Positions 3,001 through 6,000 of a DNA stretch of 64,000 nt are shown piece by piece (the stretch's first letter is position 1; each line of letters opens with the position of its first letter). Position numbers: made by a program. The DNA comes from Escherichia coli (GTDB lineage Bacteria > Pseudomonadota > Gammaproteobacteria > Enterobacterales > Enterobacteriaceae): the NCBI RefSeq assembly GCF_024502345.1, contig NZ_JALDNN010000001.1; one strand, 5' to 3'.

Positions 3001-6000
3001 AATGCCGATGACGACCTGCTGCGCCAGATAGCCTCTTACGGTCGTGGTTACACCTATTTGCTGTCACGAGCAGGCGTGACCGGCGCAGAAAACCGCGCCG
3101 CGTTACCCCTCAATCATCTGGTTGCGAAGCTGAAAGAGTACAACGCTGCACCTCCATTGCAGGGATTTGGTATTTCCGCCCCGGATCAGGTAAAAGCAGC
3201 GATTGATGCAGGAGCTGCGGGCGCGATTTCTGGTTCGGCCATTGTTAAAATCATCGAGCAACATATTAATGAGCCAGAGAAAATGCTGGCGGCACTGAAA
3301 GTTTTTGTACAACCGATGAAAGCGGCGACGCGCAGTTAATCCCACAGCCGCCAGTTCCGCTGGCGGCATTTTAACTTTCTTTAATGAAGCCGGAAAAATC
3401 CTAAATTCATTTAATATTTATCTTTTTACCGTTTCGCTTACCCCGGTCGAACGTCAACTTACGTCATTTTTCCGCCCAACAGTAATATAATCAAACAAAT
3501 TAATCCCGCAACATAACACCAGTAAAATCAATAATTTTCTCTAAGTCACTTATTCCTCAGGTAATTGTTAATATATCCAGAATGTTCCTCAAAATATATT
3601 TCCCCTCTATCTTCTCGTTGCGCTTAATTTGACTAATTCTCATTAGCGACTAATTTTAATGAGTGTCGACACACAACACTCATATTAATGAAACAATGCA
3701 ACGCAACGGGAGAAATAACATGGCCGAACATCGTGGTGGTTCAGGAAATTTCGCCGAAGACCGTGAGAAGGCATCCGACGCAGGCCGTAAAGGCGGTCAG
3801 CATAGCGGCGGTAATTTTAAAAATGATCCGCAACGCGCATCTGAAGCGGGTAAAAAAGGCGGTCAACAAAGCGGTGGTAATAAATCAGGCAAATCCTGAT
3901 TCACCGTTAATTATTAATATCAGCTGATAAAGATAATTGCATCTGCGGGCCGTATGGCTCGCAGTGATTTCACTGGAGAAAAATATGAATATGAAGACCA
4001 TTGAAGATGTATTTATTCACCTGCTTTCAGATACCTACAGCGCAGAAAAACAATTAACCCGGGCACTGGCAAAACTCGCAAGAGCAACATCAAATGAAAA
4101 ATTAAGTCAGGCTTTTCATGCGCACCTCGAGGAAACTCATGGACAGATTGAACGTATTGATCAAGTTGTGGAGTCCGAATCGAACCTGAAAATTAAGCGC
4201 ATGAAATGTGTGGCAATGGAAGGTCTCATTGAAGAAGCTAATGAGGTCATCGAAAGTACCGAGAAAAACGAAGTGCGTGATGCCGCACTGATTGCCGCAG
4301 CACAGAAAGTCGAGCATTATGAGATTGCCAGTTACGGGACATTAGCGACGCTGGCTGAACAATTAGGTTATCGTAAAGCAGCGAAGCTTCTGAAAGAGAC
4401 CCTGGAAGAAGAAAAGGCCACCGACATCAAACTGACTGATCTGGCCCTTAATAACGTAAATAAGAAAGCCGAAAATAAAGCCTGAAATATGAACTTTAAC
4501 TTTTAGTCATTTTATAAAGAGGACATTTTCATGAATCGTATTGAACATTATCATGACTGGTTACGTGACGCCCACGCAATGGAAAAGCAAGCCGAATCTA
4601 TGCTTGAATCCATGGCCAGCCGTATAGATAATTATCCTGAACTACGCGCTCGTATTGAACAACATCTTAGTGAAACCAAAAACCAGATTGTTCAACTGGA
4701 AACTATTCTTGATCGTAATGACATTTCACGTTCAGTCATTAAAGATTCCATGAGTAAAATGGCTGCGCTTGGGCAGTCAATCGGTGGTATATTCCCTTCT
4801 GATGAAATAGTCAAAGGCTCTATTAGCGGATATGTCTTCGAGCAATTTGAAATCGCCTGTTACACCTCACTATTAGCAGCAGCAAAAAATGCCGGTGATA
4901 CAGCTTCAATTCCAACCATCGAAGCGATTTTAAATGAGGAAAAGCAAATGGCCGACTGGCTGATTCAGCATATTCCGCAAACAACTGAGAAATTTTTAAT
5001 TCGCTCTGAAACTGACGGCGTAGAAGCGAAGAAATAATACACTTTATGCCATGTCCTTATTGACCCCGTATATTACGGGGTCGTTTTTTTGTGGAATTAA
5101 AAACGATATCCTGCTGAGAACATAAACACCCACGGATCGAGGCGTACGCTATCGTGTTGCTGTGCACCGCCTAGCTTATAATTGGCGGTGGTATCGATAT
5201 CCATGTACCACACTGACATGTTAACCAACCAGTCACGGTTAATCAGATAATCAACCCCCACCTGCCCGGCAGCTCCCCAGGAATCTTTCAGACTGAGATC
5301 GGAAAGCCCCGCCTCTTTGCCATGATCGTTAAATCCATTATCAAAGAAGGTGGTGTAGTTAATACCGGCCCCAACGTAAGGACGGAATTTGCTGCTGGCA
5401 TCACCAAAATACCACTGCGCCATCAGTGTTGGCGGCAGATGGTGAACGGTTGCAATATCGCCGGTCGCCCGGGTGCCGATTTTATGGCGGAACGGCGTCG
5501 CTGCCAGTAATTCCACACCAATGTTGTCGGTCGCCATATAAGTAAACGTCAAGCCCAGTTGAGTGTTATTGGTCACGCTGAATCCACCCAGACTTCCTAA
5601 CGTACCACCAGCACCTTCTGTTGGACGTACGGTTGCAGAACCTGCACGCATAAAAAATTCGCCTGCTTCATGCGCAAAGGCACTGCCAGAAAGAAGAGTT
5701 GTTACTGCCAAAGCCGCCACTGTTAACTTTTTCATATCCGCTCCGTCGTTATGGTTATAAAAACGTGACGAATATACCTACATTGGAGTAACAAATGATC
5801 CTACATAGATCACATTACATATGATAATTCACCATTTATTGATCTGGATTAATTTAGAAGTTGCATTGAGAATCCTGGTTAATGTGATTTAAATCAATTT
5901 TTAAATATTTTCTTTACGCAAATATTAACTCGATCGCCACTTGCCGCGGTTTGCCCACGCCTGAAGGCCAGCAATTACCTCCGCTTTACAAAGATATGCT

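Follow-up and report, generated by a model that had tools for sequence, protein, structure and literature searches.

The yciG-yciF-yciE cluster between trpA and ompW of an Escherichia coli genome: a known stress operon headed by an internally repetitive KGG protein

The gene cluster that lies between trpA and ompW in an Escherichia coli genome (assembly GCF_024502345.1, contig NZ_JALDNN010000001.1) raises the question of what a small protein built largely from an internal repeat is doing at the head of two ferritin-like genes, and of how stable this arrangement is among E. coli genomes. Here, "the window" refers to the whole stretch of DNA that was analysed, 64,000 nucleotides in length. The cluster occupies positions 3720-5037 of the window, exactly where the initial annotation had placed it, and comprises yciG (3720-3899; 59 aa, a KGG-repeat general stress protein), yciF (3985-4485; 166 aa, a DUF892 ferritin-like protein), and yciE (4531-5037; 168 aa, a DUF892 ferritin-like paralog of YciF), all on the plus strand and corresponding to K-12 b1259, b1258, and b1257, respectively. 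Spacers of 85 nt (yciG-yciF) and 45 nt (yciF-yciE) separate the genes, and plus-strand Shine-Dalgarno sequences precede yciG (GGGAGA, 3708-3713), yciF (GGAG, 3974-3977), and yciE (AAGAGGA, 4515-4521). The ompW ORF (5097-5735, minus strand) is convergent with yciE. Short antisense ORFs within the cluster (31-71 aa) were dismissed as being without support.

The window shares with K-12 MG1655 the genes and their order on one strand, the short spacers, trpA and ompW as flanks, and the flanking terminators. Over 1761 nt the two differ by 12 substitutions, with the replacements I155L in YciF and N147H in YciE and no structural difference; the YciG proteins are identical. This identity and synteny, together with the Pfam families and the solved structures discussed below, lead to the assignment of the cluster as the yciGFE operon. 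Collectively, we are highly confident in the account as a whole, i.e., that the cluster is the chromosomal E. coli yciG-yciF-yciE operon, a stationary-phase general-stress module between the trp operon and ompW. The earlier verdict of a "known cluster" was correct, and the operon, its regulators, both DUF892 crystal structures, and the family of KGG repeat proteins have each been described before.

The two downstream genes had been described as paralogous and ferritin-like, and both parts of the description hold. YciF and YciE are 24% identical (E = 9e-7), and both match Pfam DUF892 (PF05974), YciF with 176.7 bits (E = 4.7e-52; profile positions 1-158 of 159) and YciE with 173.4 bits (E = 4.8e-51; positions 4-158). 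A Pfam Rubrerythrin match to YciF was weak and below threshold, and NCBIfam gave zero matches for YciG, YciF, or YciE. Among solved structures, YciF matches PDB 2gs4 over its full length (E = 2.5e-98) and also Salmonella 4eru, while YciE matches 3ogh over its full length (E = 3.7e-107). DUF892 proteins have the four-helix bundle, the carboxylate-bridged di-metal site, and the ferroxidase chemistry in common with ferritin, bacterioferritin, Dps, and rubrerythrin, but they constitute a separate family. In Salmonella YciF, one metal ligand is a Gln (Q54) and the oligomer of approximately 110-120 kDa is not a 24-mer cage; moreover, Q54, E113, and E143 are needed for iron binding and ferroxidase activity (preprint, bioRxiv 10.1101/2023.01.20.524870). 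YciF of the window has all three residues at unchanged positions, and Q52, E107, and E137 of YciE align with them. The ligands conserved with the Salmonella ortholog suggest that E. coli YciF is an Fe(II) ferroxidase, and the aligned ligands suggest that YciE probably does likewise.

What, then, is the repeat in YciG? Its period is 66 nt (22 aa). A DNA repeat search (family D1) finds a 45-nt sequence in two copies, at 3771-3815 and 3837-3881, which lie 66 nt apart and share 78% identity. Prefix-versus-suffix local alignment of the protein gives a best score of 79 relative to 27.2 ± 4.3 (maximum 41) for 300 shuffles, and the repeat is thus far above chance. Tandem Repeats Finder, applied to 3600-4000 with the minimum score lowered to 30, returned no array because the YciG array is too short and degenerate; the DNA repeat search and the shuffle test were used in its place. 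YciG also clears the Pfam KGG profile (PF10685), scoring 64.8 bits where 20.4 is required (E = 7.9e-18), and the match falls in two stretches, the best being residues 10-30 over profile positions 1-22. The 22-residue unit has the consensus xGGQxSGGNFxxDxxxASEAGxK. The peptides originally quoted are present (RKGGQHSGGNF, residues 23-33; KKGGQQSGGNK, residues 45-55), and the proposed "three degenerate KGG-type repeats" agree with three [RK]GG cores (at residues 5, 24, and 46) and a real 22-aa period. Only two full Pfam KGG units exist, however, so that the protein is better described as two complete units plus partial ones, the count depending on the register. In one register, unit A (residues 4-22, nt 3729-3785) is three residues short, unit B covers residues 23-44 (nt 3786-3851), and unit C (residues 45-59, nt 3852-3896) is truncated, all on the plus strand.

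The composition of YciG is extreme (Gly 23.7%, GRAVY -1.67, hydrophobic residues 3/59). Garay-Arroyo et al. in 2000 reportedly defined hydrophilins by Gly > 6% together with high hydrophilicity, and YciG agrees with criteria of this type. No stable fold is predicted by AlphaFold2 (mean pLDDT 61, pTM 0.26), each repeat linker being modeled with a short helix (residues 11-24 and 37-46), and a PDB search with YciG found no relative. The 22-residue repeat, the hydrophilic disordered character, and stress/sigma-S-type induction are shared by the KGG proteins YmdF, STM14_1829/SEN1538, and P. aeruginosa PA2146; unlike yciG, the KGG paralogs are unlinked to DUF892 genes. Among 142 representatives, the family has 1-7 cores and lengths of 44-204 aa, as compared with 59 aa for YciG. 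B. subtilis GsiB and Neurospora con-10 are presumably further KGG-repeat small stress proteins. [quoted passage not shown] In some studies, mutation of yciG alone has had little or no effect on phenotype (bioRxiv 10.64898/2026.04.09.717482).

A comparison of repeat number across strains, as suggested in the initial annotation, was carried out on 5426 complete E. coli genomes. The number is nearly fixed, an exact one-unit in-frame contraction being seen in only seven of them. In the contraction allele, exactly 66 nt are deleted in frame, which brings AGCGGCGGTAAT up against AAATCAGG; this junction is found as a single piece in the seven genomes and the product is a 37-aa YciG. The two 45-nt DNA copies (3771-3881) are the substrate of this contraction.

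The operon is bounded by terminators and carries a third hairpin within it. The trp operon's intrinsic terminator, trp t (3347-3376, plus strand), was identified in the terminator scan and again as inverted repeat I2; it consists of a stem, GCCGCCAG/CTGGCGGC, followed by a T-rich tail, and it forms the upstream edge of the spacer in front of yciG. The one hit of an Rfam search at E <= 1 was to sroD, over trp t; at 21.9 bits it fell below the gathering score of 50 and was judged to be chance. The bias of this spacer toward C over G is also compatible with a Rho-dependent trp t′ downstream of trp t. At the other end, a GC-rich hairpin at 5061-5092 with T/A runs on either side (10 pairs followed by TTTTTTT in the terminator scan; -20.1 kcal/mol, z = -3.1) occupies the 59 nt between the yciE and ompW stop codons, starting within 24 nt of yciE, and is the likely end of the operon, a bidirectional terminator common to yciE and ompW. 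Between yciG and yciF, the stable hairpin CUGCGGGCC-GUAU-GGCUCGCAG (3943-3964, plus strand) lies approximately 10 nt 5′ of the yciF Shine-Dalgarno sequence. The yciG-yciF spacer has a minimum free energy of -25.5 kcal/mol (z = -2.9). Neither the 5′ leader (3640-3725) nor the spacer between yciF and yciE folds better than shuffles. The stem is kept in a prophage-borne copy of the cluster (see below), Salmonella, Klebsiella, and Enterobacter, where the surrounding spacers are unalignable. Across five sequences there are one compensatory pair (C-G to U-A), two G-U/A-U changes, and variable loops. The stem is conserved mostly as sequence, and it may function as a palindrome at the DNA level. That it instead acts as a functional RNA element, a leaky terminator or a 3′ stabiliser setting the YciG : YciF/YciE stoichiometry, is a tentative proposal to which we give somewhat less than an even chance.

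Two related systems place the locus in context. In Salmonella enterica, the same three genes lie beside ompW with approximately 75% DNA identity and the yciG-yciF hairpin, and a fourth gene, katN (Mn-catalase), follows yciE; in the window, katN is absent directly downstream of yciE, which is followed by the terminator and then ompW. For comparison, a Mn_catalase gene follows in loci L009 and L013. The Salmonella locus is RpoS-dependent (PMC7161692) and its YciF is a ferroxidase, as discussed above. The EHEC genes z1924-z1921 (yciGFE-katN, CP-933X) encode a KGG protein and then two DUF892 proteins in the order seen in the window, with 83/80/89% amino acid identity to YciG/YciF/YciE. This prophage copy shares the spacer hairpin and an AT-rich upstream region (31% GC), unrelated to that of the window. 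It differs from the window in its linkage to katN and phage tail-fibre genes and in the C-terminus of its YciG (…GGQNSHGGGRKSDS).

How is the operon controlled? The spacer upstream of yciG (3340-3719) is exactly 380 bp long, and its description as very AT-rich is borne out by a GC content of 36.3% versus 49.7% for the window, a value this low being found in only 1.4% of the 380-bp windows across the 64 kb. The AT-rich, G-poor part at 3376-3719 (plus strand; GC 33.7%, 0.6th percentile of the window) contains the yciG regulatory region. In EDL933, expression of yciG, yciF, and yciE is RpoS-dependent by 205-, 405-, and 38-fold, and the genes were classed as RpoS/H-NS regulated (PMC2907692). In an H-NS mutant, yciE and yciF are up 8-fold and 15-fold, respectively (PMC6064147), and PMC7705038 cites Beraud 2010 for binding of McbR/YncC to the yciG promoter. 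Published work describes an operon that is RpoS-dependent, H-NS-repressed, and McbR/YncC-activated. The H-NS/RpoS-type regulation suggested on first reading is documented, but AT-richness by itself is no proof of H-NS control. Since the 380-bp spacer differs from that of K-12 at one base (position 3602), regulatory results from K-12 should carry over. Within the spacer there are tandem 16-nt direct repeats of GACTAATTnTnATnAG (3631-3646 and 3648-3663) and an inverted repeat, ATGAGTGT/ACACTCAT (3659-3666 and 3676-3683). A sigma-70 promoter scan upstream of yciG gave no consensus site, inspection of the same region by eye gave no convincing sigma-S -10 element, and the high-affinity H-NS motif TCGWTWAATT (at most one mismatch) has 0 sites in the spacer and a window-wide total equal to chance.

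The composition of the spacer might have another main cause than its role as an H-NS/RpoS region. There is an even chance, in our estimate, that it mainly reflects trp t′, a Rho-dependent terminator with a C-rich, G-poor rut region, which would insulate yciGFE from trp read-through. At 3400-3620 the transcribed strand has 8.6% G and 24.9% C with a GC skew down to -0.47, and the best 78-nt C-minus-G value, 0.205, ranks at the 99th percentile for the window. Wu, Christie, and Platt are said to have placed trp t′ approximately 250 bp past trp t in 1981. The terminator is a standard Rho-dependent terminator in vitro (PMC1950744), and the lack of a high-affinity H-NS motif in the spacer points the same way. 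However, repression of yciGFE by H-NS and its dependence on RpoS have been reported from experiments (PMC6064147, PMC2907692), and the region upstream of the prophage copy is even more AT-rich with no trp operon adjoining. Moreover, the two roles are mutually compatible, and 3376-3719 probably also carries the trp t′ rut region.

Low GC and silencing by H-NS could also be read as xenogeneic, i.e., the cluster would be a horizontally acquired islet and not an ancestral core operon, a reading that we consider rather doubtful. The cluster has a GC content of 42.6% as compared with 49.7% for the window, and it is missing from 691 of the 5426 complete genomes (13%), in which homology to the window ends at the trpA stop, directly beyond which lie another terminator and an ompW that has diverged. 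In addition, 382 genomes (7%) carry a paralogous yciGFE-katN copy on a cryptic prophage, and yciGFE-related modules occur in records filed as plasmids from several genera. On the other hand, the cluster is present in 4735 genomes with identity of at least 95% in all but 8, as in normal core genes; inflation of this count by the prophage paralog was ruled out, the copy being only 73-78% identical in DNA and below megablast reach. The arrangement trpA-yciGFE-(katN)-ompW in one Salmonella record argues for an ancestral cluster from which katN was later lost in E. coli, the whole cluster being lost in some lineages. It is less likely still that YciG is a specific regulator, e.g., of flagella/motility or virulence expression, with repeats that bind a defined partner. 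Mutants in yciG or STM14_1829 have motility defects in some S. Typhimurium strains, and a mutant in the paralog SEN1538 has altered invasion and SPI-1 expression (PMC7161692); the modeled linker helices of YciG could fold on contact with a partner. Yet these effects on motility did not recur in S. Enteritidis (PMC7161692), and for growth at acid pH the paralogs can stand in for one another (bioRxiv 10.64898/2026.04.09.717482). A bulk protectant fits better with the hydrophilicity and high Gly content of YciG, the family range of 1-7 cores, and the co-occurrence with oxidative-stress genes.

In our preferred model of the stress operon, transcription would start in the AT-rich spacer 5′ of yciG in a sigma-S-dependent manner, with H-NS silencing the promoter and the GntR-type regulator McbR/YncC relieving this silencing or activating transcription. 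YciG, a 6 kDa, glycine-rich, very hydrophilic, and essentially unstructured protein, is proposed to have arisen by tandem duplication of the 22-residue unit, and most likely acts as a hydrophilin-like protectant, redundant with its paralog YmdF, in acid, heat, and related stresses. YciF and YciE would form paralogous four-helix bundles with a di-metal site; YciF is expected to oxidise and hold Fe(II), as was shown for the Salmonella ortholog, resulting in less Fenton chemistry. The yciG-yciF hairpin probably either makes a short yciG transcript more stable or brings about partial termination, which would uncouple yciG from yciFE, and the operon would end at the bidirectional terminator common to ompW. 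The YciG repeat is old and stable, and only occasionally is exactly one unit lost when the 45-nt copies slip or recombine.

As a discovery the cluster carries little weight, and what modest value the analysis has comes from the survey of strains. In 13% of the complete E. coli genomes the whole cluster is dispensable, and yciFE DNA without yciG is found in approximately 150 more (approximately 3%); a 319-bp deletion of yciG is among the variants. Together with the 37-aa contraction alleles, these yciFE-only genomes constitute natural experiments on the number of KGG units that function requires. Such natural variants and the conserved spacer hairpin offer cheap handles on the molecular role of KGG-repeat proteins.

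The yciG-yciF-yciE cluster lies at positions 3720-5037, exactly where the initial annotation had placed it, as judged from the ORF positions and the match to K-12. Its three plus-strand ORFs, yciG (3720-3899, 59 aa), yciF (3985-4485, 166 aa), and yciE (4531-5037, 168 aa), are preceded by trpB and trpA (trpA end, 3339) and are convergent with ompW (5097-5735). The trp t hairpin (3347-3367) forms the upstream bound of the trpA-yciG spacer, and a 10-bp GC-rich hairpin followed by a T-run (5061-5083) separates yciE from ompW. This hairpin fills the gap, and katN (the Mn-catalase gene that follows yciE in Salmonella and EHEC prophage versions) therefore cannot fit. 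All 64 kb of the window align colinearly with K-12 1,319,754-1,253,238, reversed, and 12 substitutions in 1761 nt distinguish the locus from MG1655 b1259, b1258, and b1257; YciG is identical, while YciF differs by I155L and YciE by N147H. Megablast recovered segment 3340-5100, annotated as yciG, yciF, and yciE, from 4735 of the 5426 complete E. coli genomes.

YciG has the sequence MAEH-RGGSGNFAEDREKASDAG-RKGGQHSGGNFKNDPQRASEAG-KKGGQQSGGNKSGKS, in which both peptides quoted in the initial annotation (RKGGQHSGGNF and KKGGQQSGGNK) occur. In the DNA, the stretch 3771-3815 recurs with 78% identity at 3837-3881, an offset of 66 nt, or 22 codons. Local alignment of protein prefix against suffix gave a best score of 79, compared with 27.2 +/- 4.3 (maximum 41) in 300 shuffles, and Pfam KGG (PF10685) matches in two stretches (64.8 bits, E = 7.9e-18). 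The DNA copy identity, the shuffle test, and the Pfam match together establish that the internal repeat is real. Tandem Repeats Finder missed the YciG array, whose copies are too few and too degenerate for it. Residues 4-55 of 59 lie within the repeats, so YciG does consist largely of them; the description as three degenerate KGG-type repeats holds for the three [RK]GG cores but not for complete 22-residue units, of which there are two. The N-terminal unit is three residues short and the C-terminal unit is truncated.

Repeat number is essentially fixed in E. coli and differs among lineages, as the strain and family surveys show. A search with yciG DNA hit 4586 of the 5426 complete genomes, throughout at an identity of at least 95%, and the weakest match has an in-frame loss of exactly 66 nt, one repeat unit. 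The deletion junction reads AGCGGCGGTAAT directly followed by AAATCAGG, and a probe across it aligned in one uninterrupted stretch in seven complete E. coli genomes from varied hosts (including matches H93-H98); in the other genomes among the matches listed, it matched in two pieces, 66 nt apart. The predicted product of this contraction allele is 37 aa long, and the one record examined (L006, NZ_OZ197100.1, 1521-1634) is annotated as an incomplete pseudogene. Close YciG relatives are 59-62 aa long with three cores, and no full-unit expansion was found among the 120 closest protein clusters. In the wider KGG family (599 representatives of 50%-identity clusters, E <= 1e-3), the 142 representatives examined range from 44 to 204 aa and from 1 to 7 cores.

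The protein is glycine-rich (23.7%) and hydrophilic (GRAVY -1.67), with 11 basic, 7 acidic, and just 3 hydrophobic residues. No relative of YciG was found in the PDB, and AlphaFold2 with a 15-sequence alignment gave a mean pLDDT of 61 and a pTM of 0.26, the only secondary structure being one short helix per linker (residues 11-24 and 37-46). Published work describes the paralogs YciG, YmdF, and STM14_1829 as dependent on RpoS and disordered in solution (PMC7161692), with redundant contributions to growth at pH 4.5 (bioRxiv 10.64898/2026.04.09.717482). The two downstream genes are, as initially proposed, paralogous and ferritin-like: YciF and YciE are full-length DUF892 matches (E = 4.7e-52 and 4.8e-51), share 24% identity (E = 9e-7), and match solved structures (YciF 2gs4, YciE 3ogh, and Salmonella YciF 4eru). 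Salmonella YciF forms a ~110-120 kDa oligomer, binds iron, and has ferroxidase activity, which is reduced or lost in Q54A, E113Q, and E143D mutants (preprint 10.1101/2023.01.20.524870). All three residues are kept in the window's YciF, and the aligned residues in YciE are Q52, E107, and E137.

The 380-bp trpA-yciG spacer has 36.3% GC, or 33.7% beyond the trp t hairpin, compared with 49.7% for the whole window. Among windows of equal size across the 64 kb, these values rank at the 1.4th and 0.6th percentiles, and the description "very AT-rich" is therefore justified. The window's only other segments this AT-rich (<=36% GC over 380 bp) are 18671-19031, 45431-45541, and 60641-61011. Support for the H-NS/RpoS-type regulation suggested from this composition comes from published work rather than from the sequence itself: no promoter or H-NS motif was located in the spacer. 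In EDL933, RpoS dependence of yciGFE is 205/405/38-fold and the genes are grouped under RpoS and H-NS (PMC2907692); in an engineered H-NS mutant yciE is up 8-fold and yciF 15-fold (PMC6064147). McbR/YncC is cited in PMC7705038 as binding the yciG promoter (Beraud 2010). With a single base separating this spacer from its K-12 counterpart, K-12 regulatory results should apply. Moreover, on the transcribed plus strand, 3400-3620 contains 8.6% G and 24.9% C, with GC skew as low as -0.47. This G-poor, C-rich stretch matches a Rho utilisation site in base composition, as expected for trp t', and the excess of C over G suggests that the spacer probably has a double role, in yciG regulation and as the Rho-dependent terminator. 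The classical Rho-dependent terminator trp t' reportedly lies ~250 bp past trp t (Wu, Christie and Platt, 1981). It is described as a standard Rho-dependent terminator in PMC1950744, which confirms nothing beyond that.

A stable hairpin (3943-3964; z = -2.9) lies within the 85 nt that separate yciG from yciF. Its stem, CUGCGrGyC...GrCUCGCAG, is common to chromosomal and prophage-borne E. coli copies, Salmonella, Klebsiella, and Enterobacter, in spacers that are otherwise unalignable. The element might be a protein-binding DNA palindrome or an RNA hairpin. The loops range in length from 4 to 7 nt, and this variability argues for RNA. Within the stem, one pair changes from C-G to U-A, and G-U/A-U alternations occur; with five sequences and one compensatory pair, the case for an RNA hairpin is weak. 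Our best guess is that such an RNA hairpin would act as a leaky terminator or as a 3′ or mRNA stabiliser, uncoupling yciG from yciFE.

The entire cluster is missing from 12.7% (691) of the 5426 complete E. coli genomes. In one example (L003, NZ_CP178675.1, 1941-1991), homology to the window stops at the trpA stop codon; a different hairpin terminator comes next, and a diverged ompW starts within 50 nt of trpA. A trpA-yciC query returned 692 records with a best match just 80-95% identical; the near-equality with the 691 cluster-less genomes, a match of counts and not of genomes one to one, suggests a distinct haplotype. About 150 genomes have yciFE DNA and lack yciG, as in L004 (NZ_CM142674.1), where a 319-bp deletion corresponds to window 3695-4013, and one genome has an IS1 insertion in yciF (H3). 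A paralogous, prophage-borne yciGFE-katN module is present in 382 of 5426 genomes, mostly O157:H7/STEC, with 83/80/89% amino-acid identity to the window copy. In the examples L007-L010 (5001-7214), it adjoins phage tail-fibre and assembly genes, and it is the CP-933X cluster z1924-z1921 (PMC5363993).

Other differences were seen around the locus and across the window. In many genomes the match ends at ~5215, within ompW, and the annotation there gives the gene as "OmpW family", partial (H41-H49); L001 matches to ~5100 only, and past its truncated ompW carries a DinI-like fragment, IS3, and IS30 (prophage or IS remnants). ompW appears to be an integration hotspot. Between ompW and yciC (~5975-6064), RefSeq annotates a 90-nt "YkgJ family cysteine cluster protein" pseudogene remnant in L003, L004, and L005, and no feature in K-12. 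An IS1 at ~37462-38329 occupies the narK-narG gap, where K-12 has a stretch of ~215 nt that takes in the narS sRNA region; the site is rare, its junction query being covered by >=80% in at most 5 genomes. The K-12 elements IS5U (near oppA) and ISZ (near adhE) are absent from the window. At ~47059-48060, ldr/rdl toxin-antisense repeats align with K-12 in overlapping registers, which suggests a differing copy number of the ldr-rdl unit.

Collectively, the cluster is a known one, as the initial annotation stated, and everything central to it is already on record. Minor refinements added here are an allele shortened by exactly one unit, the variable presence of the cluster among strains, a probable second function for the trpA-yciG spacer, and the conservation of the yciG-yciF hairpin.
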